The notes under the pieces are model-generated. The model had not been told where the DNA came from. It made no database searches and worked only from the letters and a program-made list of their open reading frames with translations. Positions 2,467 through 30,987 of a stretch of 64,000 nt of DNA are shown piece by piece. The position numbers and the translations under genes are program-made. The stretch is from Candidatus Saccharimonadota bacterium (GTDB lineage Bacteria; Patescibacteriota; Saccharimonadia; CAILAD01; BJGX01). Every line of letters begins with the position of its first letter. Position 1 is the first letter of the stretch. Location: NCBI GenBank assembly GCA_046350735.1, contig JAXLZU010000001.1:76530-140529 (forward strand), given 5' to 3'.

Positions 2467-3282
2467 ATGATTCAGAAAAAAATAGAAAATAAGATAAGAA
2501 CCAATTATAGATATTTTGATTTAATTCGAGAGTTGGCAGTTACAGATTTTAAATTAAAATACCAAGGTTCATTGATAGGTTACGCCTGGTCACTTGTAAA
2601 GCCATTAGCGATGTTTGGTGTACTATATCTTGTATTTACTGTATTTGTTCGCATCGGTTCTGGTATACAGCACTATGCATTATATCTACTACTTGGTATT
2701 GTGCTCTGGACTTACTTTGCAGATGCAACCAACACGACTATGAAAGCTGTAGCTGACAAAGGTGATATGATGCGAAAAGTATACTTTCCGCGTATCACCA
2801 TTATTATCGCGGCAAGCATTAGTTCGGCTATTACTTTATTATTGAATCTAATTGTTGTATTTATCTTTATTATTCTCGCAAGAATTGTTCCTGGATGGAA
2901 TGCCTTACTATTCATCCCGCTCTTAATTGAGCTCTTTATTCTTTGTCTTGGAATTGCTTTCATTACGAGTGCAATGTTTGTGAAATATCGTGATGTCGGT
3001 CATATTTGGGAAGTATTATTGCAGTTATTATTCTATGCAAGCGCGATTATCTATCCGCTACAAATAGTGCCTATTAGATACCAGAAGTTTATTCTACTCA
3101 ATCCTATCACTCAGATAGTACAAGATGCTAGATATTTACTAGTGACAAAAGAGACAATTACAGCAGAATCAGTTCTTAAAATGCCCCTCCAGTTTGTCCC
3201 ATATATTATTACAATACTAATTGTAGTGATTGGATTCATATATTTTGAAAGATCTTCAAAAAACTTTGCAGAGGAAGCGTAG
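2467..3282 (+). CDS. ABC-2 type polysaccharide/teichoic-acid export permease (Wzm/TagG-like)
   Basis: 271 aa with 6 predicted TM helices. ABC-2 permease signature. Immediately followed by its ATPase. Confidence 0.88.
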   Translation: MIQKKIENKIRTNYRYFDLIRELAVTDFKLKYQGSLIGYAWSLVKPLAMFGVLYLVFTVFVRIGSGIQHYALYLLLGIVLWTYFADATNTTMKAVADKGDMMRKVYFPRITIIIAASISSAITLLLNLIVVFIFIILARIVPGWNALLFIPLLIELFILCLGIAFITSAMFVKYRDVGHIWEVLLQLLFYASAIIYPLQIVPIRYQKFILLNPITQIVQDARYLLVTKETITAESVLKMPLQFVPYIITILIVVIGFIYFERSSKNFAEEA

Positions 3283-3283
3283 T

Positions 3284-4435
3284 ATGAAACGAGACACGGC
3301 AATTACAATTAGTCATATTAGCAAAACCTTTAAAGTACCACATGAAAAGCACACCAGTCTAAAAACTGCGGCCGTTAACATTTTTAAAACAAGAAAATAT
3401 ACTAAGTTTAAGGTTCTAGAAGATATTGATTTTGAAATAAAAAAAGGTGAATTCTTTGGTATCGTAGGAAAGAATGGCAGTGGAAAAAGTACATTATTAA
3501 AAATACTTGCTAATATCTACCAACCGAATAAGGGGAGAATAAGAGTAAATGGTACATTAGCACCATTTATAGAGTTAGGCGTTGGCTTTAACCCTGAGCT
3601 TACCGGACGAGAGAATGTATACTTAAGCGGTACAATACTTGGGATGAAAAGAAAGAAGATTGAAGAAATTTATAATGAGATAGTAGATTTCGCAGAAATT
3701 GGTGAATTTATGGACCAAAAATTAAAAAACTACTCATCAGGCATGCAAGTAAGATTAGCATTTTCTATAGCAGTACGTGCAGAATCTGATATTCTATTAA
3801 TTGATGAAGTACTAGCTGTAGGGGATGCAGCTTTTCAAGAGAAATGTCTTAATTATTTCGAAGAACTTAAGAGATTTAACAAGACAGTAGTATTTGTCTC
3901 TCATGATATGGAAGCAGTAACGCGGTTCTGCGACAAAGTAGTATTGATAGATAATGGACAAGTTATAAGCAGCGGTAGCGCCGATTTAGTTGCAAGTAAA
4001 TACTATCAAATCAATATGAACGATTCAGAAAATAAGCACAATGCTGAAACCACATCTCACCTAAAAAAGATTGTCTTGAAAGACAATAATGGAAGAGAAG
4101 CACATATTTTTGAAAGTCCAAAAAAGATTCAAGTAACTGTTGAGTGGAAGAAGAATCCAGAAATACAGAACATTGGCATAGCTATATTTAGAAATGATGG
4201 TACTTACTGTTTTGGGACAAATACTCAAATTGACAATTTTAAGGTGAATGACTCTAAGGTTCAGTTAGAATACGAAAATCTTAATTTGGCACAAGGTACA
4301 TATTTGCTAAAAATAAGCTTTTTTAACAAAAATGACAAGTTACCAATCGAGTTTATTGATAACGCTGTTCAATTTAAGATAAAAGACGAAACGAAGCAAC
4401 AAGGTATAATAAGAGTTAAATCTAGTTGGTATTAA
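3284..4435 (+). CDS. polysaccharide export ABC ATPase (Wzt/TagH-like) with C-terminal glycan-binding-type extension
   Basis: Walker A GKNGSGKST, ABC signature LSSGMQVRL, Walker B LLIDE. About 140-aa C-terminal extension resembling a Wzt_C terminal-residue binding domain. Start moved to the ATG at 3284 just after the permease stop, instead of the ORF-track start at 3230. Confidence 0.88.
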   Translation: MKRDTAITISHISKTFKVPHEKHTSLKTAAVNIFKTRKYTKFKVLEDIDFEIKKGEFFGIVGKNGSGKSTLLKILANIYQPNKGRIRVNGTLAPFIELGVGFNPELTGRENVYLSGTILGMKRKKIEEIYNEIVDFAEIGEFMDQKLKNYSSGMQVRLAFSIAVRAESDILLIDEVLAVGDAAFQEKCLNYFEELKRFNKTVVFVSHDMEAVTRFCDKVVLIDNGQVISSGSADLVASKYYQINMNDSENKHNAETTSHLKKIVLKDNNGREAHIFESPKKIQVTVEWKKNPEIQNIGIAIFRNDGTYCFGTNTQIDNFKVNDSKVQLEYENLNLAQGTYLLKISFFNKNDKLPIEFIDNAVQFKIKDETKQQGIIRVKSSWY

Positions 4436-4558
4436 TTGAATATACCAATATGACCAATACGTTTATAGTATGTTCCTCCTGTAACTATAGAGGATAATCC
4501 GATATTAATGGGTGTATAATACAAGAATTAATCAAAGTTGAGTGAAGGAGTATTGTTT

Positions 4559-5470
4559 ATGTCAAATTACTCGAATGTAGTGCTATCTGATGACCCTAAT
4601 ACCCCATGGTATCGAATATTTGCGTATATTGAGCCACAAAGCAGAGTTCTTGATGTTGGTTGTAGCGCCGGTAATTTTGGCAAGGCACTAATCGATCAGA
4701 AAAAGTGTATGGTTGATGGTATTGAAGTTAACAAACAAGATTCTATAAAAGCTAAAAAGAAACTGATGAATGTATATAATATTAATATTGAGAACACAGA
4801 TTTTAAAAACTTACCAGGTGACTATCGATATATATATTTTGGCGATGTTATTGAGCATTTAGTTGATCCAGTTTCAGTGTTGAAAAAAATTACAAAATTA
4901 TTATCCAAAGATGGTGAAATATTATTTTCTATACCAAATATGGCACATCTTTCTGTTCGATTAATGCTTTTAAGTGGCGAATTCAATTATGCTAAAACAG
5001 GATTACTCGATAATACTCACCTTCACTTTTATACGTTTAAGGAGATTGAAAGAGTATTTAATGAAGCAGGGTATGAGATTGTTTATCAAAAACCAATTAT
5101 TAAAGAGTATCCCCGTAAACTACTAGCTAAAGAATTAAAGAAAGTCGGTCTTAAAGGTGAAGAAACTTTCTTTAAAAGAGCATTGAATTCTGATGCTGTG
5201 GTTTGGCAGTATGTAGGAGCTGCAAGAAGATCAAACACACCCAAAGAAGCAGCTGTTCTACCGGCCATTAGCCCTGGATTAGAATTTGAAGAATTATATG
5301 CAACAACAGCTCAAGAATGCAGAGATATTATTTTAGAAAATAAGCAATTACAAGAACAATACCAAACTGCACTCAAAGTGATTAGACAAAAAAATAAAGA
5401 ACTACACACGTCTAAAAATCTCCCTTATTTTGTTATGAAAAAAATAAAAAACAGACTAAAGAGCACTTAG
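4559..5470 (+). CDS. class I SAM-dependent methyltransferase with C-terminal coiled-coil tail
   Basis: Motif I VLDVGCSAGNFG. AAGGAG RBS 8 nt upstream of the ATG at 4559. C-terminal heptad-like KQLQEQYQTALKVIRQKNKEL. Confidence 0.8.
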   Translation: MSNYSNVVLSDDPNTPWYRIFAYIEPQSRVLDVGCSAGNFGKALIDQKKCMVDGIEVNKQDSIKAKKKLMNVYNINIENTDFKNLPGDYRYIYFGDVIEHLVDPVSVLKKITKLLSKDGEILFSIPNMAHLSVRLMLLSGEFNYAKTGLLDNTHLHFYTFKEIERVFNEAGYEIVYQKPIIKEYPRKLLAKELKKVGLKGEETFFKRALNSDAVVWQYVGAARRSNTPKEAAVLPAISPGLEFEELYATTAQECRDIILENKQLQEQYQTALKVIRQKNKELHTSKNLPYFVMKKIKNRLKST

Positions 5471-5471
5471 T

Positions 5472-7433
5472 ATGGTTTCTGATAAAAATTCTGTCTCACA
5501 TCAAAATATCTTAGAAGTTAATAACGAGTTCTTTAATGAGGATGAAAGCAAAGAAATATATGTACGAAATAAAAATGATCCTCGATTAATTTCATTCTAC
5601 TTGCCACAATTTTACCCTATCCCCGAGAATGACAAGAGTTGGGGTAAAGGGTTTACGGAATGGACAAATGTTAGAAAAGCTGAGCCACGCTTCGTAGGCC
5701 ATCAACAACCATTTTTACCTCTGAACGATGACTATTACGATCTGAGAGATCCGAATGTTTTAGAACAACAAATACGATTAGCCAAACAATATGGTATCTT
5801 TGGTTTTTGCTTTTACCACTATTGGTTCAGTGGAAAAAGACTACTAGATGTGCCTCTAGATATCTTTTTACAAAATAAGCAATGGGACTTTGGTTTTATG
5901 ATTTGTTGGGCAAATGAGAATTGGACAAAACGCTGGGATGGCAGAGAAGAAGAAATAATTATCGCCCAAAAATATAGAGATAATGACCCCTTAGAATTCA
6001 TCAAGTCTGTTGAACATATAATAATTGATCCGCGCTATATAAGAAACAATAACAAGCCTGTGCTAATGGTTTATAGAGCACCTGACCTGAGGGATCCACT
6101 TGCTTACTCAAATATCTGGAGAAAATATTTGCGCGATAAATACTCAATTGAGATTGAACTTGTAACCACAATAGGTTTTGATTTGGTCGATCCACGATCG
6201 TATGGCTTTGATAAGGCCTTGGATTTTGAACCACTAACGTATGGTTTAAAAAAGTCTGGTAATGACGGTTCCCAGGTAATATCACGAAAGGTTTCAAGAA
6301 AACTAATTGATAAAGAATTTACTGGTAATGTTGAGGATTATAGGAATATAGCATTGGACGATAAACAGTATGAAGTATTTAATTTCCCAAACTACAAGGC
6401 TATTATGCCGTCGTGGGATAATGATGCCAGAAGAAAAGGAAAGGGATTTACTATGCACAATTCAACTCCTGATGTTTACGCACATTGGCTAAAAAATACA
6501 ATAAAAATAGAAACTAGTAATAATAAACAAGAACCTCTGATATTTATTAACGCCTGGAATGAATGGGGTGAAGGGGCGGTCCTAGAGCCCACAAAACATT
6601 TTGGATATGCTAACTTGTTAAGAACAGCTGAAATACTGTCGCAGTATAATAAGTCAAAGAGGAATCTAGATAATTTCCCTCTCTATAGAATTCGAAGAGG
6701 GGGAGATAGTAAGTTGGCTGTGGTAATTCACCTGGAAGGTGGACTCAACTGGGATGTTTTAAACGAGAAGCTTGGTTATTTAAAGAATATAAAACATGAT
6801 CTATTTTTTTATATATCTAAAGACTTAGATATTAGTGAATCTTATATTCAACAACTCTACCCAAATTCAAACATTTATTACTTTAGCCCTAATGAATATA
6901 TTATGATGCGCCTTATGCATGTAGGTAGACGATTACTAGAATGTGGATATGATAATCTCCTCAATATTGCATCGTCACAAAGCATCAATTTGGATAAGGG
7001 CATTGAGGATATCTTACCGAGTAAACAGCAAGCATTCAAAGCTTATAAGACACTACAGAATCATTCAAACAGCGCTATAGGGGTTACGGAGCATTCATCG
7101 CCACTTACTAATACTGTCGTTAAAGACAATCCAAAGATTAAAGAGGTTTTGTCGAATATATACAACCCAACTCTTGCGGACATTATTTTAGAAGAGACAT
7201 TTGGTTTCGGAAAGTACAAAAATTATTCTTTTTGGGTTAATCTGCCTACAATCAGCCAACTATTAAATTTTTATTTTCTACCTTATGATTTTCTTAACCC
7301 CACCGAAGGAACTCCTGATGCACTTAATGATGCGTTATGGAATGTTTTTTGGATGCTACCAAAGCTTAGAGGAGGATCTATATACAGCATCGGTAAGGGC
7401 GACATTATGACAGAAAAGTTTGAAGTAATGTAA
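5472..7433 (+). CDS. WbsX-like glycan-processing protein (Glyco_tran_WbsX family)
   Basis: N-terminal FYLPQFYPIPENDKSWGKGFTEWTNV is the hallmark of the WbsX family. 653 aa. Confidence 0.72.
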   Translation: MVSDKNSVSHQNILEVNNEFFNEDESKEIYVRNKNDPRLISFYLPQFYPIPENDKSWGKGFTEWTNVRKAEPRFVGHQQPFLPLNDDYYDLRDPNVLEQQIRLAKQYGIFGFCFYHYWFSGKRLLDVPLDIFLQNKQWDFGFMICWANENWTKRWDGREEEIIIAQKYRDNDPLEFIKSVEHIIIDPRYIRNNNKPVLMVYRAPDLRDPLAYSNIWRKYLRDKYSIEIELVTTIGFDLVDPRSYGFDKALDFEPLTYGLKKSGNDGSQVISRKVSRKLIDKEFTGNVEDYRNIALDDKQYEVFNFPNYKAIMPSWDNDARRKGKGFTMHNSTPDVYAHWLKNTIKIETSNNKQEPLIFINAWNEWGEGAVLEPTKHFGYANLLRTAEILSQYNKSKRNLDNFPLYRIRRGGDSKLAVVIHLEGGLNWDVLNEKLGYLKNIKHDLFFYISKDLDISESYIQQLYPNSNIYYFSPNEYIMMRLMHVGRRLLECGYDNLLNIASSQSINLDKGIEDILPSKQQAFKAYKTLQNHSNSAIGVTEHSSPLTNTVVKDNPKIKEVLSNIYNPTLADIILEETFGFGKYKNYSFWVNLPTISQLLNFYFLPYDFLNPTEGTPDALNDALWNVFWMLPKLRGGSIYSIGKGDIMTEKFEVM

Positions 7434-7528: not shown

Positions 7529-8500
7529 ATGAAACAACCAACTGTAAGCGTGGTAGTACCAAATTGGAATGGCAAAGACATATTAGGTAAATGCCTAGAC
7601 TCGCTACAAACACAAAGCTACAGGCCAGCTGAGATTATTGTTGTAGAGAATGGTAGTATTGATGGCTCGGCCGAGTATATTGCCAAACACTATCCAGAAG
7701 TTGCGCTGATTGTAGAACCGGAAAATCTCGGGTTTGCAGGCGGAGTAAATGTTGGTATAAAAGCAGCCAAATCTGATTATATTTGGCTGTTTAATAACGA
7801 CGCGGTGGCGCAAAAAGATTGTTTGGCCAAACTAGTGGCTACAGCAGTAAAGAGCAACGCAGATATTACCTCTGCAGTTATTCTTAGCCAAGACGGTAAA
7901 AAGATAGATTCCGATGGAGATGTCTATACTATCTATGGGTTTCCTTACCCCAGACACCGTAACTTGGCAGCTAGCGAACTACCAAAGCAAGATGAACCTA
8001 TCTTTGCTGCTAGCGGCGGTGCTAGCCTGTATAAAGCATCGCTATTTACAGACATTGGCTACTTCGAAGAATCGTTCTTTGCGTATTACGAAGATGTAGA
8101 CTTAAGTATGCGTGCACAGTTGCAGAAAAAATCTCTTTGGCTTAGCCATAATGCCATTGTGTTACATGCCACCAGCCATACCAGTAATAAAATTCCCGGG
8201 TTCGGCAGAGAGATGGCAATTAGAAATAGTATATATATCTTTTGGCGTGATCTACCAAAAGGTGTACAGGGCAAAGTTTTTTGGCGATTCTTATGTGCCA
8301 ATTGGCGGCTTAGTTTGGTTTCGATACTCAAGGGACATCCATACAGAGTTTTACGGGCGCACTTTACTGCGTTGTTCCATACTCCACAATTACTAAAGGC
8401 AAGAAAAGAAATTCAGTCTAGCAAAAAAATGAGTGCCGAACAATTTCTCGGCCTTATTAGTAGAGAGAACCCGTTTAAAGTATTAAAGAGTCGCCAGTAA
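7529..8500 (+). CDS. GT2 glycosyltransferase
   Basis: VSVVVPNWNG...IVVENGSIDGS...LFNNDAV motifs. 323 aa. Confidence 0.85.
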   Translation: MKQPTVSVVVPNWNGKDILGKCLDSLQTQSYRPAEIIVVENGSIDGSAEYIAKHYPEVALIVEPENLGFAGGVNVGIKAAKSDYIWLFNNDAVAQKDCLAKLVATAVKSNADITSAVILSQDGKKIDSDGDVYTIYGFPYPRHRNLAASELPKQDEPIFAASGGASLYKASLFTDIGYFEESFFAYYEDVDLSMRAQLQKKSLWLSHNAIVLHATSHTSNKIPGFGREMAIRNSIYIFWRDLPKGVQGKVFWRFLCANWRLSLVSILKGHPYRVLRAHFTALFHTPQLLKARKEIQSSKKMSAEQFLGLISRENPFKVLKSRQ

Positions 8501-9336
8501 TGTTAAGCATTATTACGATTAACTACAATACCCAAAAGTTGCTCGAGGATTGCTTAAACTCTATTAAGCGATATATAAATATTGAGAGTTATGAAGTAAT
8601 AGTGGTAGATAACGCCTCAGAAGAATTTAGTGAGGCAGCATTAAAAAAGATTATTCCAGGTATTACTATAATTCACTCTAAAGAAAATCTTGGTTTTGCA
8701 AAAGCCAATAACTTGGCTGCCAAGCAAGCAAAAGGCGAGTATTTGTGGTTTTTAAATAGTGACACCAAGCTAAATAAAGACAGCAATATTAGCGTGCTAA
8801 TACAGTTTTTAGATTCGCACAAAGAATATGGCGCTGCCGCACCACTCGTACTCGATGCAAAAAATGTACCACAACAATATCAATATGGGTATTGGCCAGC
8901 GGTCTGGCGTATGATACTCGAAAAGCCAGTGAACGCTAGAGTATCTAAGAATCCACTCCATGCCAAGTACTGGCGTTGGCTCAATGCAGACTATTTACCA
9001 TTGCAAAGTCGGGATGTCGACTGGGTAAGTGGTGCTGCTATGATGATACGCAAAAATGTGTTCAACGAGGTGGGTGGCTTTGAGGCTGAATACTTTTTGT
9101 ATTACGAAGATGTCGACTTGTGTCGCAAGTTGTGGGCCAACAAACAAAAGATTCGCTTCGTAAAAGATGCACAGATTATACATTTAGAAGGTGGCAGCGA
9201 GGGCGATATGTCTAAGAAAAAACTTATTGCTTATCATAGCCAAGACATTTACTTTAAGCGCTGGGGGAGTCCGGTTTCGCGATTTGCATTACACAAGGTT
9301 CGTCGACCGTACGCTAAGAGATGGCAGAAGAAATAA
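8500..9336 (+). CDS. GT2 glycosyltransferase
   Basis: LSIITINYNT...VIVVDNAS...FLNSDT motifs. Start overlaps upstream stop (TAATG). Confidence 0.85.
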   Translation: MLSIITINYNTQKLLEDCLNSIKRYINIESYEVIVVDNASEEFSEAALKKIIPGITIIHSKENLGFAKANNLAAKQAKGEYLWFLNSDTKLNKDSNISVLIQFLDSHKEYGAAAPLVLDAKNVPQQYQYGYWPAVWRMILEKPVNARVSKNPLHAKYWRWLNADYLPLQSRDVDWVSGAAMMIRKNVFNEVGGFEAEYFLYYEDVDLCRKLWANKQKIRFVKDAQIIHLEGGSEGDMSKKKLIAYHSQDIYFKRWGSPVSRFALHKVRRPYAKRWQKK

Positions 9337-12104
9337 AATCATATATAGCACAAGCAAATGTCTATTTGCTAAGCGCACTGTTATTCTTTTTGCCATTTGA
9401 GATTTGGCCGCAACTGTATTGGTACAGCACGGCAGTTCGACCAAGCCATATCGTTGGTACTCTATTATTACTCATTAATATACCAATGCTGATAAAACGG
9501 CGTTGGGACTGGCTGCAGTTACCATGGGTATTGCTAGCCTTGTTTTTGCTAACAGGGGTTATATCGGCATTCTATAACAAAAGTACCAGCCACAGTTATC
9601 TAACTCTTATGTTGTATGGGTATGAGTTTGTGTTGGCTTTTTGTGTTGCACAAATAATTAATAAGCGAGACTTAGCATGGTATCGCAATATTATTCTTAT
9701 TAGTGGAAGTCTAGTTGTGATATTTGCCTTGTGGCAATTTTTTGGTGATGTGCTTGGTGTTTCTACTCATTACACGCTTTTGGCTACTCGCTATTCTAAG
9801 CTTATCTTTGGGTATCCTCGAATAACGGGGCTGAGTTTTGAGCCTGCTACTCTAGTAAACTATCTTATTATCCCACTTAGTCTGGCACTTGTAACATTTT
9901 TTGTAAAACCTAGTAAGCGCTATTTTGTTTTGTCTGTTGCATTCTTAAGTAGTATATTCTTGGCAACATCACGCTCGGCATTTATTGGGTTGTCGCTAAT
10001 ATCTCTTATATTGTTAGTAGTTCTTGCAGCTAAAAGGTACTATAAAGAAATTGTTTATCTTGGTTTATTAGTAGTTATGTCTGCTGTTTTTGCGGCTACA
10101 ATTTTGTTTGTAGGTGCACGCCTGGCCAGACCAGTGCAGGTAGCAGTTCCGTCTGATATTCAGACAACTATACCACAGACAGGCATTAATCCTTCGGTGG
10201 TACGTCATAACCTGACTACTCAGCTTGCTTCTGTAGAAACAAATACCTCGGTACAGACTCGCTTAGATTCATGGCGAGCAGGAATAAAAGTATTTATTAC
10301 TCATCCTGTATTAGGAATAGGACCAGGAAATTTACAGGCCACATTAGCACGACAGTTTAATGTTGATACATCAATATATAGCGGCAATTCGCTATCACGT
10401 AGCGTATATGTACAACTTTTGGCAGAGCAGGGTATTGTTGGTAGCGGCATATTAATTGTTTTTCTGATTACCTTACTTTGGTTGGCGGTACAGGTATGGC
10501 CAAGAATACATAGTAAACAAGAAGAAATATGGCTGTTGGCAATAGTACTTATGAGTATAATGTTTTTGGTGCAGTGGCAGAGCCTAGGTAATTTAGCAGT
10601 TACACATACATGGATATTTGTTGGTGTGCTCGTTGGTATCACTGGCTCGGTAAAAGTAATGTATTTAGACAATCTTCGTCGTCGTGTGCAGAGCAGTGTA
10701 TGGCTTCGCCAAAACAAATTAGCTTTAGTAATATCTGCAATAAGTTTTGGATATTATGTACTACTGCAATATTTGTTATATCGTAAGTTGCAGATACCAA
10801 TGCTCGATCTCGGTTTGTTTAACAGGCATATGTATGGGCTGGTTCACTCGGGCCTCAGCATTAATCCTCTTAAGGGCTATAATCTCTTGGGCGACCATGC
10901 GCACTTTTTCTTATTGCCACTAGTGCCACTGTATTATCTTTGGCAAGCCCCCGGATTCTTACTTGTCTTGCAAGCACTTTGTATTGTACTCAGCGGTTGG
11001 CCAATATATTTAATTGCCAAACACTATTCATCCAAGCCTCAGCTGGCAGCATTCTGGCTGCTGCCGTACTTTTTATTCTTTGGGTTCTTTTCTGCACTCG
11101 TCTATTCTTTTCACGACTCAGCTGCCGCCGTCTTACCACTGGCCTGGGTGCTGTATTTTCTATTAGTAAGTAAAAACTATCGGCATTTATGTATTGGCTT
11201 AGCAACACTGTTGCTCTTTCGCGAAGACATGCCGCTCGTAGCACTAATGGTAGCAATTTATCTAATAATAGTTGAACGTAAATATTGGCTTGGTGTAGCA
11301 ATTGGGTTTGTTAGTGCACTATATTTTGCTGTTATAACTAAGCTATGGCTACCACTATTTGGGCCGAGTTATGGATATGAAAAAACAAATTTTGGCAGCG
11401 GCATACAAGATGTAGTAAAAGCAGTATTTCTACAGCCACTTGGTGTCGTAAAAGCGTTCTTTTTGCCGAGCGAAAAGCTACGCAACATGCTAGCTATGGT
11501 ATTTTCATTCGGTGGTTTTAGTATCTTTGCTCTCGAAATAGTAATTTTACTTTTACCACTGTGGCTAGGGAGATTTTTAAGTACTGAGACATGGCGATGG
11601 GGAAGCTTTGAGCACTACTCGGCATCGCAAGCCCCAATATTGGCAGCCGCATCTATTATTGGTTTGTATCGGTTGATACAATTTTTACACAAAAATTATG
11701 GTGTTAATAAAGAGTTACTATACAAGATAGCCATTAGCTCTACGATACTATTGGCCTTTAGTATTAACATAGCTATGCACCAATATGCAGTACTAAAGCC
11801 ATTGTCCCTTCGGTTTTATAAGCTCACCCCTACAGAGCGGAGTGCTCGCACAGCATTTCAGTTAATTCCTAAAAATGCGAGCGTTGGTGCGAGCTCGGCA
11901 TTTGCTATGCTTTCTTCGCGTGCAGAGATTTATTACTTACCACTACCAGAGGGGGCACACCCAGAATATATTGTTATTTCGAGCAACCTAGAAAAATGGC
12001 CATTTATGAGCAAGCAGGAAGTTGATGAGTATATTAGTGTACTTACAAATAATGGCTATAGAGAAGTATTTAACGAAAATACTGTTGTGATACTACAAAG
12101 ATAA
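9321..12104 (+). CDS. large polytopic membrane protein: N-terminal O-antigen-ligase/Wzy_C-like domain fused to C-terminal DUF2079-like domain
   Basis: 927 aa with more than 20 predicted TM helices. Periplasmic-loop motif R..W......HP.LG.G.GN and NSLSRSVYVQLLAEQGIVG resemble the Wzy_C/WaaL family. Second half (LGDHAHFFLLPLVPLYYLW...) resembles DUF2079 predicted membrane glycosyltransferase-like proteins. Confidence 0.65.
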   Translation: MAEEIKSYIAQANVYLLSALLFFLPFEIWPQLYWYSTAVRPSHIVGTLLLLINIPMLIKRRWDWLQLPWVLLALFLLTGVISAFYNKSTSHSYLTLMLYGYEFVLAFCVAQIINKRDLAWYRNIILISGSLVVIFALWQFFGDVLGVSTHYTLLATRYSKLIFGYPRITGLSFEPATLVNYLIIPLSLALVTFFVKPSKRYFVLSVAFLSSIFLATSRSAFIGLSLISLILLVVLAAKRYYKEIVYLGLLVVMSAVFAATILFVGARLARPVQVAVPSDIQTTIPQTGINPSVVRHNLTTQLASVETNTSVQTRLDSWRAGIKVFITHPVLGIGPGNLQATLARQFNVDTSIYSGNSLSRSVYVQLLAEQGIVGSGILIVFLITLLWLAVQVWPRIHSKQEEIWLLAIVLMSIMFLVQWQSLGNLAVTHTWIFVGVLVGITGSVKVMYLDNLRRRVQSSVWLRQNKLALVISAISFGYYVLLQYLLYRKLQIPMLDLGLFNRHMYGLVHSGLSINPLKGYNLLGDHAHFFLLPLVPLYYLWQAPGFLLVLQALCIVLSGWPIYLIAKHYSSKPQLAAFWLLPYFLFFGFFSALVYSFHDSAAAVLPLAWVLYFLLVSKNYRHLCIGLATLLLFREDMPLVALMVAIYLIIVERKYWLGVAIGFVSALYFAVITKLWLPLFGPSYGYEKTNFGSGIQDVVKAVFLQPLGVVKAFFLPSEKLRNMLAMVFSFGGFSIFALEIVILLLPLWLGRFLSTETWRWGSFEHYSASQAPILAAASIIGLYRLIQFLHKNYGVNKELLYKIAISSTILLAFSINIAMHQYAVLKPLSLRFYKLTPTERSARTAFQLIPKNASVGASSAFAMLSSRAEIYYLPLPEGAHPEYIVISSNLEKWPFMSKQEVDEYISVLTNNGYREVFNENTVVILQR

Positions 12105-12162: not shown

Positions 12163-12705
12163 TTATTTGGCTCTAACACCATTTGGCTGGATTACCCACC
12201 AAAAACCGCCATGTGTTCTAACGTTATGGCACTCTACTTCTCCGGCTTTCTCATGTGCGTAATAATATAATGGATGACCATTGTAGGTAACTTGAGTAGT
12301 ACCATCACTGCGCTTAGTGGTTCCAAGCAATTGACTATTTACCTCAGCAGTTGCAATCGGTGTACCATTTGTTAGCACAGGCGGCCACTCTTTGGCACAG
12401 TCTCCATAGCATTTAGCTGTTGACGAATCTTCTAGTTGCCAAATATAGATAGCCTGATTGTTGTTATCAAAAAGCATCACGCCATATTTACTGTTACCGG
12501 TTTTAATAATAGTTCCGGTAGCAGTATCTTCTTTGTTTACTTCAGGCTTATTGTTAGGCGGTGCTGATTCAATATTTTTGTTAGCAGCTGTTTGATTATT
12601 ATTACTATTTAATCGAAATAAAAAGTAGCCAAGGCATGCTATTGCTATTACAAACGCAAGTATACCCAACCAAACTAACTTAGAGTTATTTTTTGTTACT
12701 TTCAT
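12163..12705 (-). CDS. secreted/membrane-anchored protein of the COG4315 (Yx[FWY]xx[DE] repeat) family
   Basis: N-terminal TM anchor. Low-complexity linker. C-terminal IYIWQLED and LYYYAHEKAGE repeats. Confidence 0.55.
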   Translation of the reverse strand: MKVTKNNSKLVWLGILAFVIAIACLGYFLFRLNSNNNQTAANKNIESAPPNNKPEVNKEDTATGTIIKTGNSKYGVMLFDNNNQAIYIWQLEDSSTAKCYGDCAKEWPPVLTNGTPIATAEVNSQLLGTTKRSDGTTQVTYNGHPLYYYAHEKAGEVECHNVRTHGGFWWVIQPNGVRAK

Positions 12706-12754: not shown

Positions 12755-14080
12755 TTATCTTCCTGGCCAGGAGCTATCTGCCCAAGCCCAGCCAATGTAT
12801 GGTCCGGCACCTACCGAGCTAATAGTGGTAATACGGGCGCCATAAGCCTTTCCATTATATGTATATCCATTACTCACAAACTGACCGTTGCCAATAGATA
12901 GCATTACATGGCCATAGCCACCATTTACATTTGCGGCACCAAAGAACGCTAAGGCACCGGCAGGCACATTAGTATCACCTCTATGCATTTGCCCAGTGGC
13001 AATTTTAGCATTCGCATTGGCAAGTGCACTGCCATATCGCCCACGTGTACCAAAGGCTTGCTCCACCATAAGTTCACACAGACCGTTCCAAGAAGTACTA
13101 CCAACTTGTGATTTAGCCCAGTTGATTGCTCGCTGCTCTTTGGTAGTAATTATCGGGGAAGGTGGAGCAGAACAACCTGCAGCCCCAGCGTATGGGTAGG
13201 TAGCAAACATGGTATTAATTTCGGCTTGCGATGCCGAGCGGACACCATTCCAACCACCATAGCAACGTAGCAATGTTTCGGCACTAGACATACCAAATAT
13301 TTGCCCGTTGTGCAGTAAGAAAACGGTTCCATTTGGCGACAAAAGTTTGGTGCCTTCTGGCAGGCTATACTGACAACCTGCAGTACCGCCACCGGGGTAC
13401 GTTATTGTAAGTCTAAGAATCTCGGCATCACTAACATGATGTACCGCTGACCAACCGCCATAACAGCCAAGAACTGCCGGGCTCGGAATGGCGAGCCAAG
13501 TACTATTTCTTACTAAATATACACCTGGTCCAGAACCTTGCAAGAGCGTATTGTTTGCATAAGTAATTCTACTACAGGTAAACGTACCGGCATTTGAGTA
13601 GGTAGCCATGGCCCAACGAAATTCATAGGCTGGCATGTTCATTTGTACTGGTGCCCAACCACCTAGACACGCAATAAGTGTTTCGGGGTTAGGAACCCAA
13701 TAGCTATTGCTGCCCGAAATTACGTACACCGCACTACTGTTAGGGTCTTTAAAGGTCTTATTATTTGGGTAAACTACCCGGCAGAACGCGGGCTGACTAA
13801 CACCCATAGTTACTATGGCATCATTAAGAAGGCTATCATTAATCCAATTAACGCGAGACCAACCACCTAGGCAAGTAGTGAGTGTTTCTGGGTCTAAGAT
13901 GGGATGGAGGTTACCATTACTCACATAATACACACCAGGCCCCGAACCCTTTAGTAGACTGCCATCGGGGTAACGTGTGCTGGCAGAAGCCTGTTGTTGT
14001 GAAAGTGCAAGGCCACAAATCGTAAGAACAATGGCCAATAATGAAAAAACGACCTTGTGGGTCGTAGGGGAGGTTTCCAT
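12755..14080 (-). CDS. secreted cell-wall hydrolase: signal peptide, about 5 CxGGW repeats, C-terminal CHAP/NlpC-P60-like Cys-His domain
   Basis: AAGGAGG RBS 6 nt before the second in-frame ATG (METSPTTHKVVFSLLAIVLTICGLALS signal peptide). Repeated modules of about 55 aa each contain C(L/Y)GGW. C-terminus has WNGLCELMV...GYGHVMLSIG (Cys/His pair). Visibly GC-richer than neighbouring genes. Confidence 0.7.
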   Translation of the reverse strand: METSPTTHKVVFSLLAIVLTICGLALSQQQASASTRYPDGSLLKGSGPGVYYVSNGNLHPILDPETLTTCLGGWSRVNWINDSLLNDAIVTMGVSQPAFCRVVYPNNKTFKDPNSSAVYVISGSNSYWVPNPETLIACLGGWAPVQMNMPAYEFRWAMATYSNAGTFTCSRITYANNTLLQGSGPGVYLVRNSTWLAIPSPAVLGCYGGWSAVHHVSDAEILRLTITYPGGGTAGCQYSLPEGTKLLSPNGTVFLLHNGQIFGMSSAETLLRCYGGWNGVRSASQAEINTMFATYPYAGAAGCSAPPSPIITTKEQRAINWAKSQVGSTSWNGLCELMVEQAFGTRGRYGSALANANAKIATGQMHRGDTNVPAGALAFFGAANVNGGYGHVMLSIGNGQFVSNGYTYNGKAYGARITTISSVGAGPYIGWAWADSSWPGR

Positions 14081-14229
14081 TGTCATCCTCCTTGTTCGGC
14101 GCTGGGGACTTGTGATTACAATGGAATATATCCACCTTACCAAATCTAAAAATGGCTTTGCAAGCAGCAGCAGTTTTATGCCGCCTCATGCTTAAAAAAT
14201 ATACTATTTTAAGGTATAATACCCTAGAT

Positions 14230-15348
14230 ATGAAGATCGTAATTGATGGTCGTTTTATAAAGCAAACTGGCATAGGTCGCTACATTGAAGAAATGGTTGA
14301 GCAGGTTTTACTTATCGACAAAAAAAACCAATATGTACTAATTATTCGCAAAAAAGACAAAGACCAAATTACCCTTAAGGCCAAGAATTTATCATTACTT
14401 CCGGTCGATATGGATTGGTATAACTTTAAAGAGCAAATACAGCTTGCCAAAATAATAGAATCGCAAAAGCCAGACTTAGTACATTTTACTAATTTTAATT
14501 TTCCACTACGTTATCGTGGTAAATTTGTAATGACTATACACGATCTTACCTTATTGCACTTTCAGAATATTCGCAAAAAAGGTATGGGCACGCTTAAGTA
14601 CAAAGTGCGAGATCAAGCTAGGCGTTTGGCAATGCGCCAAGGTGTAAAACGCGCCAAAATGCTACTTGTAGATAGCGAGTATGTAAAAGAAGATATTGCC
14701 AAAACCTACCATGTAAGACGCAATAAAATTGTGGTTGCACCACTTGCTGGTGAAGCCGCGTATCAACGTGCTCGGGTAGATTTAGAAAAATATGGTATTA
14801 ACAAACCATTCTTGTTTTATACCGGCAATGCCTATCCACACAAAAATCTCGAACGCCTAATTCTGGCATTTGGACAGCTAACAACTAAGTATCTCTTAGA
14901 CTATCAATTAGTTATTGGTGGTAAAAAAGATGATTTTCACGAAGGCTTAGAAGAAGAAGTAAAAAAATCTGGTCTGAGTGAGCGAGTTATCTTTACGGGC
15001 TTTGTAAGCGATGCCGAGCTAGCAGGGCTATATAAAGCTGCTACTTTGTATGTTTTGCCATCACTCTCAGAAGGCTTTGGCTTGCCTGGGCTTGAAGCAA
15101 TGAGTTATGGCCTGCCGGTAGTTAGCAGTAATGCTACCTGTCTACCAGAAGTATTAGAAGATGCCGCGGTATATTTTGACCCTCGTAGCGTTAAAGATAT
15201 AGCTGCAGTTATTGCTAATACACTCGCCGACAAAGACTTGCTCGCCAAGCTAACCAAAAAAGGCTATCGTCAAATTAAAAAATACAGTTGGCGTAAGACT
15301 GCTAAGATAACACATGAAGTGTATGAAAAGGTATTAAGACAAAAATAA
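14230..15348 (+). CDS. GT4 (GT-B fold) glycosyltransferase
   Basis: MKIVIDGRFI start. C-terminal EGFGLPGLEAMSYGLPVVSS is the GT4 signature. Start moved to the ATG at 14230 rather than the ORF-track start at 14152. Confidence 0.85.
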   Translation: MKIVIDGRFIKQTGIGRYIEEMVEQVLLIDKKNQYVLIIRKKDKDQITLKAKNLSLLPVDMDWYNFKEQIQLAKIIESQKPDLVHFTNFNFPLRYRGKFVMTIHDLTLLHFQNIRKKGMGTLKYKVRDQARRLAMRQGVKRAKMLLVDSEYVKEDIAKTYHVRRNKIVVAPLAGEAAYQRARVDLEKYGINKPFLFYTGNAYPHKNLERLILAFGQLTTKYLLDYQLVIGGKKDDFHEGLEEEVKKSGLSERVIFTGFVSDAELAGLYKAATLYVLPSLSEGFGLPGLEAMSYGLPVVSSNATCLPEVLEDAAVYFDPRSVKDIAAVIANTLADKDLLAKLTKKGYRQIKKYSWRKTAKITHEVYEKVLRQK

Positions 15349-15353
15349 GTAAG

Positions 15354-16382
15354 TTAATTTTTGTTTGGTATAGTTTTAATGGCTTCCCACATTTCGGGGT
15401 GGCCGTTTTCTTTTAGCCAGTACCACCATTCTGATCCCCACAGATCAAACTCTCTTATTTGGCTCTGCCGAGCATACTCAATATTCTCATATAAAATTTT
15501 AGGGTTCATAGTAGCAAATGCTTCTTGGGGGTTGAGATTTTCGTTGCCAACTTTACCCCACGCCTCAGCTTGAAGCTCGTGAATTTTTATTTCTGAGCGA
15601 GTATAGAGGTTAATTATGGCAGCTTTCCACCAAAAGTAGAGGCCAGTTTGTGGGTAACGAAAGTAACCAAATGGACTCCACACCCAACGATACATCGAAA
15701 ACCCAAAGATATTACCATATGGCAAACGCACAGGAAAACCATTCTGATTACTCTGCGTAATAACTATTGGACGTGATGAGTCTAGACTCTTAACTAAGTT
15801 ATATTCAGCCTGATAATCTTTAGAGTTTAAGTTTTGAGCTGGACAATCACCAAAACTTTTTAGTAAGAACTCATTCTCTAACTGCCATTTCTCTATAGTA
15901 GGATTGTTTTTATACCTATTTACTACTGCCTCGAGCATTTTGAGTGATTCGGCATGTACTGCTTGAGAATTAGTCTTGTCTAGCCAAGCAGGGTAGTAAC
16001 ATTCGGGTACACGTAGGCTTTTTTGACCAATTACCATAGTAAGCTTGGCACCGCGTTTGCTCGCTTCATTTACCATGTAATCGGTTTGGCTAAAGTCGTA
16101 TACATCTGGCTGTGGCTCTAGCCTGTCCCAATAGGCTGCAATACGAATATGTCTAAAACCTAGCTCATCCATAAGCGAAGTAAAGTTTTTCTGCCAGTCG
16201 CTACCATAACGCTCTGCCTGTACTTGACTAAAGCTTACGCCAATTTGTTCTTGTCTATTGTGATTGAGCAACCAAAAACGCATCATCAAAACAAACGAAA
16301 CAACAATAACTATACCAATTAAAATAAGTGTGGTTCTCACTGCCCAATGGAGCTTTGGATTGGTAGTCTTAGCAACTTTCAT
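15354..16382 (-). CDS. membrane-anchored TIM-barrel glycoside hydrolase (clan GH-A, GH5/GH113-like)
   Basis: N-terminal TM helix. GFRHIRIAAYWDRLEP and WQLENE (NEP-type catalytic acid motif). Confidence 0.5.
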   Translation of the reverse strand: MKVAKTTNPKLHWAVRTTLILIGIVIVVSFVLMMRFWLLNHNRQEQIGVSFSQVQAERYGSDWQKNFTSLMDELGFRHIRIAAYWDRLEPQPDVYDFSQTDYMVNEASKRGAKLTMVIGQKSLRVPECYYPAWLDKTNSQAVHAESLKMLEAVVNRYKNNPTIEKWQLENEFLLKSFGDCPAQNLNSKDYQAEYNLVKSLDSSRPIVITQSNQNGFPVRLPYGNIFGFSMYRWVWSPFGYFRYPQTGLYFWWKAAIINLYTRSEIKIHELQAEAWGKVGNENLNPQEAFATMNPKILYENIEYARQSQIREFDLWGSEWWYWLKENGHPEMWEAIKTIPNKN

Positions 16383-16434: not shown

Positions 16435-17670
16435 CTAGGTAAGTAGATATTGATTGCCAAGAAGCCAAGGACTGTCTGGAGTTTGAGGACGATAACGAAT
16501 GTGCTGCTGAATCATTTCTACTTGCTTCGTATACATATCTCTTGGTGTAGCGCGGGTAATACTAAGGTGTCGTCGTACTAAGCGTTGAATGTCTTTGAAG
16601 AAACCAGAATAATCACCTGAGCGATACTCAGTACTAGCAAGCGTCATGGTAATAATTCGCAATAGTAACCGTTGCTGGTCTTTTTCTGCATGTTTTAGCT
16701 CGGAGAGAAGCATATCTAACTCACCTAGTTGTTGTTCGGCAAGTAGAGCTTCAACAAGCATTTCTGCAGCAATTGGTGAGTCACTCTGAGTAAGGCAATG
16801 GTGGTTTATCCAGACCTTTGCCCAGAAGTAGGGCTTTAGACCGAGTCTGTCGAGTCGCTTGGTAGCTTCTCTCATAAAAGCATTAACACGTTTTCTCCCT
16901 ACGCGTACACTACTCAGCATAGTCTGCAGATCCCAAATATCGGCCGCGATTGTTTCGGCAAAGGTGGTACAATTAAGATAACGATAACGCAGAGACTTCT
17001 CAGAGAGAGCATCGTACTCTAGTTGCAATCGCAGGCGAGCAATAGCTGCTGTTAGTCGAGCAGCATTGGCACTAGGGTTGTATCGAGCGAGCGAATCGCG
17101 AAACCCAACAGAATTTTCTACTCGACTGCGCGCATCTTTTCTAAGAAGTGTTCTACACAGCTGCATATCTGATGCAACTAGCCTAAGCAAATCAGCTTCG
17201 CCACTAGAATCTTGCAAGAGTTTAAACCAATCATCGAGCAGGCGCTGTCGAACTTCTTGCACAGTTTCTCTACGAGTTGTATCAAGATCAGAACGCAATG
17301 CAATATTTCTACTACCTTGAATACCAGAACGAATACCAGACTCTACCGTCACAAAGGTCTCATGCTCACTAAGTGGTGGTCGAGCCCTAACGTAAATAAG
17401 CACTTCACCAACCAAATCCATATCTTTAATGTCTGATACTTTGGTAACTACCCAATACTTCTCAGAGATATTTCTACCAGGCCTTACTAGGATCTGTCTA
17501 GCTCGAATATTGCGCGAACGCAGCTTTTTACCAGTAATAATTGGCTGTACCTCAACCCCAAGAGCATAGCTAAAGCGCATATCTTCTTGCACTGTCAATG
17601 TTTCTCCCTTTGTAGGTTCTCTCTTGAGAGCGAACGTATAATACCATGTAACACCTTGACTTTCAACCAT
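16435..17670 (-). CDS. hypothetical protein (411 aa, Arg-rich, no recognisable domain)
   Basis: Long ORF with coding-like composition, GC-richer than surroundings. No motif I can assign. Confidence 0.55.
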   Translation of the reverse strand: MVESQGVTWYYTFALKREPTKGETLTVQEDMRFSYALGVEVQPIITGKKLRSRNIRARQILVRPGRNISEKYWVVTKVSDIKDMDLVGEVLIYVRARPPLSEHETFVTVESGIRSGIQGSRNIALRSDLDTTRRETVQEVRQRLLDDWFKLLQDSSGEADLLRLVASDMQLCRTLLRKDARSRVENSVGFRDSLARYNPSANAARLTAAIARLRLQLEYDALSEKSLRYRYLNCTTFAETIAADIWDLQTMLSSVRVGRKRVNAFMREATKRLDRLGLKPYFWAKVWINHHCLTQSDSPIAAEMLVEALLAEQQLGELDMLLSELKHAEKDQQRLLLRIITMTLASTEYRSGDYSGFFKDIQRLVRRHLSITRATPRDMYTKQVEMIQQHIRYRPQTPDSPWLLGNQYLLT

Positions 17671-28845: not shown

Positions 28846-30108
28846 ATGTTAAAACAGAGCAAAACCAAACAGTCTTTCTGGAGACACCATCGAGTTTTCT
28901 TAGTAATTCTAACTATGGTTGTTCTGATACTTCTTATTCTTATAGGTATTTTAGGATATCAACAGTATCAGGCTAATCAATATCAAAATAGTATTAGCTC
29001 GTTCTATAATACGAGTAACTTACCTCTCAATGGACCACTTGGCCAAGTTGTAAGAAGCGAGCCGCTTGGGCAAACAGTGCCAGGCGGAAGTGCACAGAGA
29101 ATCTTATATCGTACTCAAAGAGCTGACGGCACACCAACATTTGCTTCAGGTATTGTTTTTATTCCCAGTTTATCAACTACGACACCTCGTCCAGTTGTTG
29201 CCTGGGCGCACGGCACAATCGGCATGGGGCCACAATGTGCGCCATCACGTAATGCCAATTCTGTAGCTAGTATTGATTGGATTAGCTTGATGATGCAGCG
29301 AGGGTGGGTAGTAGCCGCTACAGATTATGCAGGGCTTGGAACACCGGGCATTGAAGAATATTTGATAGGCAATAGTGAATCAAACGACGTTCTTAATAGT
29401 GTTAGGGCAGCACGAAATATTACTAGTGCGCAAGCCGGCAATGTATTTACCGTCTGGGGACACTCACAGGGTGGACACTCAGCACTCTTTACCGCCAAAA
29501 ATGCCGCAAGTTATGCACCAGAGTTACAGCTAGTAGGTACAGCAGCAACTGCTCCTGCCGCAGAACTTGTACCGCTCTTTAACGAGCAGAATGGCCAAGC
29601 AATAGATTGGGTAATTGGTCCTGAGGCAATTATTTCTTGGCCATCAGTGTATGCCAATCTCAATGCCCAGGATGTCTTGACTTCTGCCGGTAAGAATAAT
29701 TACCAACAAATTGCTCAAAAATGCATTGATGCTGCAGCAATAAGTGGCATTGTTCGTAATGGTTTGCATCAACAGTTCTTTAATACCAATATTATGAATA
29801 TTCCCGCTTGGAAAACTGCTGCACAGGCCCAAACTGCACCAATATTAAAGCCAAACCAACCAGTTTTTGTTGGTGAAACGTTGGCCGACCAAGTTGTATT
29901 GCCCAACACAACAGCCCTATATATTCAGCAAGCTTGCGCGGCAAACTCAAATTTAACTTCTCTGTGGCTAAATGATGTAGGTCATATACAACTACAGACT
30001 GTGATAGCTCCAGCAGTAATTAATTGGCTTGGAGATAGATTTGCAAGTCGAACAAATATTTCTACCTGCAATCAGCCATTACCTATCGCGCCAGCACAAT
30101 CTAGCTAG
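28846..30108 (+). CDS. secreted lipase/esterase (alpha/beta-hydrolase, secretory-lipase-like)
   Basis: N-terminal TM/signal anchor. Nucleophile elbow GHSQGGH. Confidence 0.72.
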   Translation: MLKQSKTKQSFWRHHRVFLVILTMVVLILLILIGILGYQQYQANQYQNSISSFYNTSNLPLNGPLGQVVRSEPLGQTVPGGSAQRILYRTQRADGTPTFASGIVFIPSLSTTTPRPVVAWAHGTIGMGPQCAPSRNANSVASIDWISLMMQRGWVVAATDYAGLGTPGIEEYLIGNSESNDVLNSVRAARNITSAQAGNVFTVWGHSQGGHSALFTAKNAASYAPELQLVGTAATAPAAELVPLFNEQNGQAIDWVIGPEAIISWPSVYANLNAQDVLTSAGKNNYQQIAQKCIDAAAISGIVRNGLHQQFFNTNIMNIPAWKTAAQAQTAPILKPNQPVFVGETLADQVVLPNTTALYIQQACAANSNLTSLWLNDVGHIQLQTVIAPAVINWLGDRFASRTNISTCNQPLPIAPAQSS

Positions 30109-30166: not shown

Positions 30167-30985
30167 ATGAACAAAAAATATTCAAAACTCGATATCCTGC
30201 GTTGGGTAATTCTAATAATAATAGCCATTACAAACATATACATAGTAAAAAATCCTGTACTATCTTTGCTAATATTCTTGTTACCAATCACTTTTGTATT
30301 CTTACATAGTGGTAATTATTTTGGTTGGGTGCATACCCTCATTATGTTTGTACTAATTATTGCAATTGGATTTTTAGGAGAATATCTTGGTGTTCATACA
30401 GGAGTAATCTTTGGTAATTACTATTACAACCCTAGCCCCAATGTAAACGGATTTCTTATAGGAGGTGTGCCACCACTAGTAACATTTAGTTATGTATCGA
30501 TGGGCTATACCTGTTATATTTTGTCACGAATTATTTTAGGCTACTACAAGAAGGTAACTGGTTGGATGGTATTGGGTATCGCGGCAATGGCTGCAGTATT
30601 TATGGTAATTTGGGATATGTGTTTTGATCCAACCTCTTCTATTGTCCAGCATCTTTGGACATGGCAGAAGGGAGGTGCCTACTTTGGTGAGCCCTTTCAA
30701 AATTTTACGGGTTGGTTTATGGTAACCTTTACATTTTTTGTGGCTATAGGACTGTATTTGTGGTGGCGTTCGAAACCCAAAGACTATATTGCTAAGCCAA
30801 GCAAACTATTTTTATTAGAACCAATTATTCTTTTTGCCGCCAGTGCATTCTCTATCGTTGTTAAAGAAATGTCTCCAAGCCCAACTGTACTGCAGCAAAA
30901 TCTTGCTCTCATTGCATTATTTGGTATGGGTACAATTATACTAATTGCGGTATTACGGTTACTAACTACGAAAGGTTTTCACTAA
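30167..30985 (+). CDS. polytopic membrane protein (hypothetical)
   Basis: 272 aa with about 7 TM helices. Translationally adjacent to the next gene. Confidence 0.6.
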   Translation: MNKKYSKLDILRWVILIIIAITNIYIVKNPVLSLLIFLLPITFVFLHSGNYFGWVHTLIMFVLIIAIGFLGEYLGVHTGVIFGNYYYNPSPNVNGFLIGGVPPLVTFSYVSMGYTCYILSRIILGYYKKVTGWMVLGIAAMAAVFMVIWDMCFDPTSSIVQHLWTWQKGGAYFGEPFQNFTGWFMVTFTFFVAIGLYLWWRSKPKDYIAKPSKLFLLEPIILFAASAFSIVVKEMSPSPTVLQQNLALIALFGMGTIILIAVLRLLTTKGFH

Positions 30986-30987
30986 GA

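Follow-up and report, generated by a model that had tools for sequence, protein, structure and literature searches.

The gene examined here lies within a 64,000-nucleotide (nt) stretch of DNA from a Candidatus Saccharimonadota bacterium (contig JAXLZU010000001.1, positions 76,530 to 140,529; hereafter the window). It encodes a 927-amino-acid (aa) membrane protein in which a Wzy_C domain of the O-antigen-ligase type is followed, in the same polypeptide, by a DUF2079 domain. We analysed its two halves, its relatives and the glycan locus around it.

A single gene encodes two membrane enzyme modules

Both domains scored above their Pfam cutoffs in a domain-resolved profile search: Wzy_C at aa 205-377 (E 2.5e-15, 57 bits against a cutoff of 31.7) and DUF2079 (PF09852) at aa 489-923 (E 3.3e-50, 172 bits against 28.2), the latter covering profile positions 4-458 of 459. 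A hydropathy scan combined with the helices of an AlphaFold model gave about 12 transmembrane (TM) helices in the N-terminal half (N-half) and about 11 in the C-terminal half (C-half), or about 23 in total. An earlier, sequence-only reading of the window had described one open reading frame (ORF) with more than 20 TM helices that joins Wzy_C to DUF2079, and had proposed such a search as a check; these results agree with it on each count. The features of the gene, with conservation in the N-half counted over its 41 closest stand-alone relatives, are as follows.

9321..12104, + strand: fused gene, 927 aa plus stop, ATG start, 0 internal stops
9321..10655, + strand: N-half, aa 1-445, a WaaL/Wzy-type GT-C_B module with 12 TM helices (Pfam, profile, Foldseek)
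9840..9842, + strand: Glu174 codon, outer loop between TM5 and TM6; invariant in 41/41
9933-10451, + strand: Wzy_C core, aa 205-377 (Pfam)
9972..9974, + strand: Arg218 codon (motif S217-R218), aligned with WaaL Arg191; R in 40/41
10260..10262, + strand: Arg314 codon, aligned with WaaL Arg265; R in 41/41
10398..10400, + strand: Arg360 codon, aligned with the acceptor-activating His313 of WaaL
10656..10715, + strand: junction or linker, aa 446-465, basic (RRR), predicted cytoplasmic helix
10716..12101, + strand: C-half, aa 466-927, DUF2079, GT-C_A fold, about 11 TM helices
10785-12089, + strand: Pfam DUF2079 match, aa 489-923
10806..10808, + strand: Asp496 codon (motif L-D-L-G), invariant in 68 DUF2079 sequences
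11781-12101, + strand: C-terminal alpha/beta domain, aa about 821-927, predicted to lie outside the membrane

The 5' end of the gene overlaps the 3' end of an upstream glycosyltransferase family 2 (GT2) gene by 16 nt. AlphaFold modelled the full protein with a predicted local distance difference test score (pLDDT) of 93.7 and a predicted template-modelling score (pTM) of 0.84; a sequence search with the whole 927-aa protein against the PDB returned 0 matches. An identical protein is present in NCBI as 'MAG: DUF2079 domain-containing protein [Candidatus Saccharibacteria bacterium]', and a fused homologue, P0005, is annotated by JGI as 'uncharacterized membrane protein/O-antigen ligase'. Thus, both domains are already listed by automatic annotation, and each half is a member of a known superfamily; what is rare and lineage-restricted is the covalent GT-C_B plus GT-C_A architecture. 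Our literature search found no description of a Wzy_C/DUF2079 fusion, and the combination of 'Saccharibacteria' with 'O-antigen ligase' returned nothing.

The fusion is genuine and confined to one clade

An exhaustive HMMER search of 1.84e9 representative proteins yielded 5145 matches at E<=1e-3 for both halves together, and we inspected the best 150. P0005 (911 aa, about 53-54% identity) was the only full-length fused protein among these 150 of 5145, the remainder being proteins in which either DUF2079 (about 450-650 aa) or Wzy_C (about 420-456 aa) stands alone, in line with the earlier remark that the two families are normally separate. The best stand-alone DUF2079 protein, P0006 (487 aa, 45%), and the best stand-alone Wzy_C protein, P0012 (456 aa, 37%), adjoin on one Saccharibacteria contig, with 35 nt shared between their reading frames and with the gene order of the window: GT2-GT2-Wzy_C-DUF2079, repeat protein, GT4, GH5. 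A word-indexed homologue search recovered only five fused proteins. Fused ORFs were found in loci L003, L004, L026, L033 and L036, and fused homologues from different samples share 96, 80, 75 and 53% identity with the window protein and keep the linker. The most divergent fused gene has the same synteny as the window.

Scanning one genome per species gave 17 loci, all from Saccharibacteria or Patescibacteria. Two are fused (L003 and L004), seven have Wzy_C directly upstream of DUF2079, overlapping it in another frame, three have Wzy_C adjacent but on the other strand, and five have no Wzy_C, although three of these five (L005, L006 and L014) retain the rest of the locus. Two further fused loci, five split loci and one contig of the fused clade with a deletion came from a scan of metagenomes. 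The split pairs (for example GCA_013816445.1, locus L002/L008) are orthologous to the two halves and share their synteny, differing in that each pair occupies two frames, with an overlap of 10-60 nt between its ORFs, whereas the window lineage has one frame and one polypeptide.

In a neighbour-joining tree of DUF2079 halves, the fused proteins formed one clade nested among split forms, and the Wzy_C-less trio was sister to a split form. This topology argues for a single fusion event and one later loss of Wzy_C, so that the absence of Wzy_C from L005, L006 and L014 would be secondary. Judged from these sequence comparisons, separate, adjacent and overlapping genes are the ancestral state, and the overlapping ancestral genes were probably translationally coupled. 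Both halves of the fused gene have evolved under purifying selection, with ratios of nonsynonymous to synonymous substitution (dN/dS) between the window and L004 of 0.108 for the N-half and 0.084 for the C-half.

The sequence-only reading had warned that two separate genes in related genomes would point to an assembly or frameshift artefact joining two real genes. Separate genes do occur, in seven of the 17 species, and in one fused-clade metagenome contig, L025, the frame is broken by a 65-nt deletion. The conclusion of an artefact was nonetheless not borne out: split genes are the ancestral form, the fused proteins make up a monophyletic group, purifying selection acts on the N-half as well as on the C-half, homologues at 53-96% identity from different samples keep the linker, and the very same 927-aa ORF came out of independent assemblies of raw reads (Logan) and is also present in the NCBI metagenome-assembled genome. 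We therefore dismiss the artefact, for which there is next to no likelihood left, and conclude that the fusion is genuine and fixed in one small Saccharibacteria clade.

Two loci deserve separate mention. In L025 (positions 1-760, 80% identity) the 65-nt deletion costs the Wzy_C half its TM12 and causes a frameshift; the intact fused versions L026 and L033 come from the same metagenome. In L011 (4540-4710) an A9 homopolymer lies at the Wzy_C/DUF2079 junction, and the first start codon in the DUF2079 frame is a TTG inside TM1. This would point either to another fusion that arose independently and is masked by a sequencing frameshift, or to a site that is slippery or phase-variable.

The N-half is a WaaL/Wzy-type module with an unusual active site

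A profile of the 41 closest stand-alone relatives matched WaaL of Cupriavidus metallidurans (CAZy GT121; PDB 7TPG) at E 2.3e-15, the sole solved structure matched by sequence. WaaL was also the top Foldseek match of the full model (7tpg_B, TMt 0.60), an outcome of the structural comparison that the sequence-only reading had suggested; FtsW matched with a lower score. The N-half thus belongs to the WaaL/Wzy/SEDS clan (GT-C_B, CAZy clan GT-C1). Like WaaL, it has a Wzy_C domain, 12 TM helices and, ahead of TM10, a long outer loop, and the model helices place a large outer loop at aa 269-361. Both arginines of WaaL that bind the phosphates of undecaprenyl diphosphate (Und-PP), Arg191 and Arg265 (PMC10920833), have counterparts in R218 and R314, and from this alignment it is very likely that the N-half binds an Und-PP-linked glycan.

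The protein departs from WaaL in its fusion to a GT-C_A module and at the position of His313. This histidine has been suggested to activate the acceptor (PMC10920833; numbered His338 in PMC10449877), whereas the aligned column holds Asn in 37/41 family members, His in 0/41 and Arg360 in the window protein. The N-half therefore has neither a canonical ligase nor a canonical protein O-oligosaccharyltransferase (O-OTase) active site. In the inverting polymerase family GT127, there is no acidic residue at the His position and a conserved Glu lies in the TM5-6 loop (Meitil et al., PMC10920833). By analogy, Glu174 is a candidate substitute for the missing base. Further invariant residues of the N-half are Arg167, in the same TM5-6 outer loop as Glu174, and E369.

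The window protein and its relatives at 75-96% identity carry the changes N360R, N361S, E365Q and G219S, whereas P0005 keeps the family residues (N-N...E motif). Over positions conserved in more than 90% of the family, the N-half departs at L176A, Y177T, G219S, N360R, N361S, E365Q, F422L, S423G, T424N and Y426A, with a dN/dS of about 0.1. On sequence grounds, this pattern looks like a shift in specificity after the fusion.

The C-half has the fold of GT-C_A glycosyltransferases

Modelled alone, the C-half reached a pLDDT of 96.4 and a pTM of 0.94. Foldseek returned 19 PDB matches at E<=1e-3, all of them GT-C_A enzymes (ALG9, DPY19, STT3, ArnT, PglB and AftA), with Pmt4 just behind at E 7.5e-3. 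The earlier suggestion that the DUF2079 half could be GT-C-like was thereby strengthened. Across the GT-C_A enzymes compared (ALG9, ArnT, DPY19, STT3/PglB, AftA and PMT), the likeness extends from the fold (Foldseek probability 1.0, TMq 0.45-0.53) to an invariant Asp where the first outer loop begins and an extracytoplasmic domain at the C-terminus. It does not extend to the sequence: the C-half has no sequence-level match to any solved GT-C, the DUF2079 profile gave no match against the PDB, no NCBIfam model covers the C-half, and it contains neither WWDYG nor any other family-specific GT-C motif. AftA acts on an ABC-exported polymer in mycobacteria, and GacL is a further example in streptococci.

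Asp496 lies eight residues past the first TM helix of the C-half, at the start of the first outer loop, and its conservation makes it a candidate for the catalytic acid/base of the GT-C_A module. H526 and E635 are likewise invariant in DUF2079 sequences, and D525, H598, K719 and R867 are invariant or nearly so; D525 is conserved in at least 90% of 35 DUF2079 sequences and invariant among the closest relatives. From hydropathy, the positive-inside rule and the model helices, all conserved polar residues are predicted to face outwards.

The linker is predicted to join the halves without a topological conflict

The linker corresponds to the C-terminal tail of a stand-alone Wzy_C protein plus the N-terminus of a stand-alone DUF2079 protein. 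We predicted topology from hydropathy, the positive-inside rule and the model helices, which place both termini of the N-half inside. Because the WaaL-like half would end inside and the GT-C_A half would begin inside, a short basic cytoplasmic linker would connect them without a conflict. The five fused proteins keep the linker but not Met448, at the position where DUF2079 formerly began. For this reason we rejected an internal translation start there and take the C-half not to be made separately.

The gene sits in an ABC-transporter-dependent glycan locus

The sequence-only reading had placed the gene in a glycan locus that depends on an ATP-binding cassette (ABC) transporter, and the Pfam matches upstream confirmed this.

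725-2413, divergent: further GT2 gene (Pfam)
2467-3282, + strand: Wzm, ABC2_membrane (ABC-2 permease; Pfam)
3230-4435, + strand: Wzt, ABC_tran with a C-terminal Wzt_C glycan-binding domain (Pfam)
4538-5470, + strand: S-adenosylmethionine (SAM) methyltransferase (Pfam)
5472-7433, + strand: WbsX-type glycosyltransferase (Pfam)
7529-8500, + strand: GT2 glycosyltransferase, no TM segment (Pfam)
8500-9336, + strand: GT2 glycosyltransferase (GT2b), no TM segment (Pfam)
12163-12705, - strand: Lipoprotein_15 protein
12755-14143, - strand: secreted or anchored repeat protein, 462 aa, weak NlpC/P60-like C-terminus
14152-15348, + strand: GT4 glycosyltransferase, conserved downstream
15354-16382, - strand: GH5/GH42-like glycosidase, membrane-anchored, conserved downstream
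16435-17670, - strand: 411-aa protein, no Pfam match, conserved

Wzm and Wzt (2467..4435) are the exporter of a lipid-linked glycan and are conserved in L003, L004, L005 and L007, and the methyltransferase is likely to be the chain-end capping enzyme. A Wzt_C domain together with a methyltransferase is the signature of ABC export of a chain that is completed and capped in the cytoplasm, as in the S-layer glycan cluster of Geobacillus stearothermophilus (PMC2943079). The region 4538..7433 varies among related loci. Two GT2 genes immediately precede the Wzy_C/DUF2079 genes in most of these loci. A GtrB/DPM1-type role for the two upstream GT2 genes was considered and rejected, as they have no TM segments and only generic GT2 matches.

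Downstream, the repeat protein has an N-terminal anchor, four repeats of about 65 aa with two Cys each that belong to no Pfam family, and a C-terminal region matching NLPC_P60 at E 0.002, below the cutoff. Its divergent position beside DUF2079 is conserved in L003-L008, L014 and probably L036; more speculatively, the protein could be a wall hydrolase or a glycan acceptor. The glycosidase and the 411-aa protein adjoin the locus in most relatives, and a processing hydrolase for the glycan of the locus is plausible among these neighbours.

Among species without Wzy_C there, L005 (9054-11350), L006 (3-2128) and L014 (404-2664) keep GT2, GT2, DUF2079, the repeat protein, GT4 and GH5, with GT2b abutting DUF2079. 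Wzm/Wzt are present in L005, the only one of the three in which contig coverage allowed this to be seen.

No GtrA/GtrB-like, Wzx, LCP or lipopolysaccharide (LPS) genes were seen in the rest of the 64-kb window. Elsewhere in it, adjacent genes at 30167-32652 (+) give matches to Caroten_synth (PF04240) and to the lipocalin domain of CrtC (PF07143) and lie beside a secretory lipase gene (28846-30108); carotenoid-type genes are unexpected in a reduced Saccharibacteria genome. A 646-aa protein with a Peptidase_S74 domain (52434-54374, +) lies directly upstream of MurJ (54452-55966). Peptidase_S74 is the intramolecular chaperone of endosialidase and is typical of tail-fibre proteins.

Related pairings occur in other loci

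Outside Saccharibacteria, DUF2079 clusters with other GT-C families (YfhO-like, PMT_2 and PMT). In L020 (8001-12723), a distant 622-aa DUF2079 protein lies in a Wzt_C/methyltransferase/GT4 locus next to a YfhO-like GT-C; in L022 (358-10091), DUF2079 occurs among PMT_2 GT-Cs and a Wzy_C-TPR protein; and L023 (513-10247) has two DUF2079 paralogues with PMT_2, GT2 and GT4 genes. L024 (6359-11350), a Wzm/Wzt/methyltransferase locus, has GT2-GT2-Wzy_C followed by Mannosyl_trans2, a PIG-V-like GT-C, in place of DUF2079. Taken together, these four contexts suggest that a module of a ligase-like enzyme plus a GT-C_A enzyme recurs at the end of ABC-transporter loci. In L024, an RHH/Fic toxin-antitoxin-like pair is inserted after the first Wzy_C copy.

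A covalent pairing of this general kind has been described in WadA of Brucella and Mesorhizobium, in which GT121 is fused to a GT25 enzyme that adds the last core sugar, an arrangement taken as coupled action (PMC10920833). Both proteins covalently join a ligase-type GT-C_B module to a second glycosyltransferase, and in WadA the two act on the same acceptor. However, the partner in WadA is a soluble GT-A-type GT25 that uses nucleotide sugars, whereas here it is an 11-TM GT-C_A module predicted to act outside; domain order and lineage differ as well, and the resemblance is one of concept only. At the level of the pathway, the closest analogue is WsaB, which acts after Wzm/Wzt on a methyl-capped glycan in a Gram-positive bacterium (PMC2943079). 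WsaB, WsfB, PglL and PilO share the Wzy_C domain with the N-half and differ from it in having a conserved His and a TPR module; the DUF2079 half has no counterpart there.

Proposed function and alternatives

We consider it reasonably probable that two outward-facing, polyprenol-dependent membrane glycosyltransferases have been fused, and that they carry out consecutive transfer steps on an ABC-exported glycan. The glycan would be assembled on Und-PP and capped in the cytoplasm, and Wzm/Wzt would then export it. Once it is at the outer face, the N-half would bind the Und-PP-glycan through R218 and R314 and transfer it to an acceptor hydroxyl, and the C-half, using D496, would add a sugar from a polyprenyl-phosphate donor to the same acceptor or product. 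Most likely, the GT-C_A module would prepare or decorate what the ligase-like module accepts or produces, along the lines of WadA. That precedent leads us to favour priming of the acceptor by DUF2079 followed by en-bloc transfer; decoration after transfer fits the data equally well. In a Saccharibacterium, and with no LPS genes seen in the 64-kb window, the acceptor is unlikely to be lipid A-core as it is for WaaL.

Several observations weigh against this proposal. The N-half does not have the His that is regarded as acceptor-activating in O-antigen ligases, and the sub-clade of the window deviates at near-invariant family positions (N360R, N361S, E365Q and G219S). The donor of the C-half is unsupported by context, because neither a polyprenyl-phosphate-sugar synthase (a GtrB/DPM1-like GT2 with TM segments) nor a GtrA flippase is encoded in the 64-kb window. 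Nor does DUF2079 strictly need a Wzy_C partner, given that L005, L006 and L014 keep the locus and DUF2079 without Wzy_C there. Finally, we found no biochemical or genetic data on DUF2079 in the literature; searches for DUF2079, PF09852, COG3463 and IPR018650 retrieved no study of the family, and the one text match to PF09852 was an unrelated data-mining paper.

A more specific version, which we put forward only tentatively and think improbable as a whole, is that Wzy_C and DUF2079 form a dedicated two-enzyme machine of Saccharibacteria and other members of the candidate phyla radiation. DUF2079 would prime the acceptor from a polyprenyl-phosphate donor and the His-less ligase would then move the capped glycan onto it, with Glu174 or another residue as the base and a non-LPS acceptor such as a lipid anchor, peptidoglycan or a surface protein.

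The sequence-only reading had instead favoured a protein O-OTase for the Wzy_C half. An enzyme of the WsaB/PglL type would transfer the ABC-exported, methyl-capped glycan from Und-PP to Ser, Thr or Tyr of a surface protein, with an S-layer-like protein, a pilin or the neighbouring secreted repeat protein as suggested targets and DUF2079 as a second transferase. Such an assignment is consistent with the resemblance of the locus to the G. stearothermophilus slg cluster, in which Wzm/Wzt and a methyl cap accompany the Wzy_C-containing WsaB, a predicted O-OTase (PMC2943079). It would also suit a Saccharibacterium host with no LPS core or lipid A genes seen in the window, and the repeat protein is a conserved divergent neighbour. 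However, where WaaL has its conserved His, the family has Asn and the window protein Arg360. In PglL the corresponding His (H349) is essential. Moreover, Pfam detected no TPR or other protein-binding module, the locus contains no S-layer or pilin gene, no Ser/Thr-rich linker is visible in the repeat protein, and three species keep the locus without Wzy_C. With no target glycoprotein identified and the His column as it is (Asn in 37/41, Arg here), the O-OTase assignment is not supported as stated, and we regard it as rather unlikely. The same missing His would fit a Wzy-type polymerase (BP-Pol, inverting clan GT-C1) that joins Und-PP blocks and leaves final transfer or decoration to DUF2079. 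The invariant Glu174 in the TM5-6 loop, as described for GT127, the two or three Wzy_C paralogues around DUF2079 in L009, L012 and L015, and the match of the C-half fold to STT3 and PglB, en-bloc transferases that use lipid-PP donors, all point the same way. Yet an ABC transporter with Wzt_C and a methyltransferase implies chains completed in the cytoplasm, for which a polymerase is not needed (PMC2943079), the locus has no Wzx flippase or chain-length regulator, and WaaL is the only solved structure that the family profile matches, which together make a polymerase a still weaker candidate.

It is also conceivable, if very unlikely, that the N-half of this sub-clade is catalytically dead and serves as a scaffold or lipid-carrier-binding module for DUF2079 as the sole active enzyme. 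The replacement of four near-invariant residues (N360R, N361S, E365Q and G219S), the dispensability of Wzy_C in L005, L006 and L014, and the higher conservation of the C-half than of the N-half would be expected under this model. By contrast, an N-half dN/dS of about 0.1, the retention of R167, E174, R218, R314 and E369, and the conservation of the R360/S361/Q365 replacements themselves among homologues at 75-96% identity argue for continued function, as does the family N-N...E motif kept by P0005, the oldest fused member.

Discussion

Saccharibacteria live as obligate epibionts and need contact with their host cells, and little is known of their surface glycans. In the only species amenable to genetics, inactivation of polysaccharide-synthesis genes or of an O-antigen-ligase-family gene caused growth defects or lethality in co-culture (PMC10633639). 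The locus described here points to an unstudied envelope glycoconjugate pathway in this group.

The merger of the two genes suggests joint action of their enzymes on an exported surface sugar chain. Together with the much commoner overlapping gene pair, the fusion acts as a 'Rosetta stone' that ties DUF2079, a widespread membrane-protein family, both to an enzyme of the WaaL/Wzy type and to glycan loci with ABC transporters, and this link yields a testable hypothesis. The ligase-like active site that has no His also bears on how GT-C_B enzymes activate their acceptors. If Wzy_C and DUF2079 do form a dedicated machine for priming and en-bloc transfer, this would provide a first function for the large DUF2079 family and a new route of envelope glycoconjugate assembly in an epibiotic lineage.

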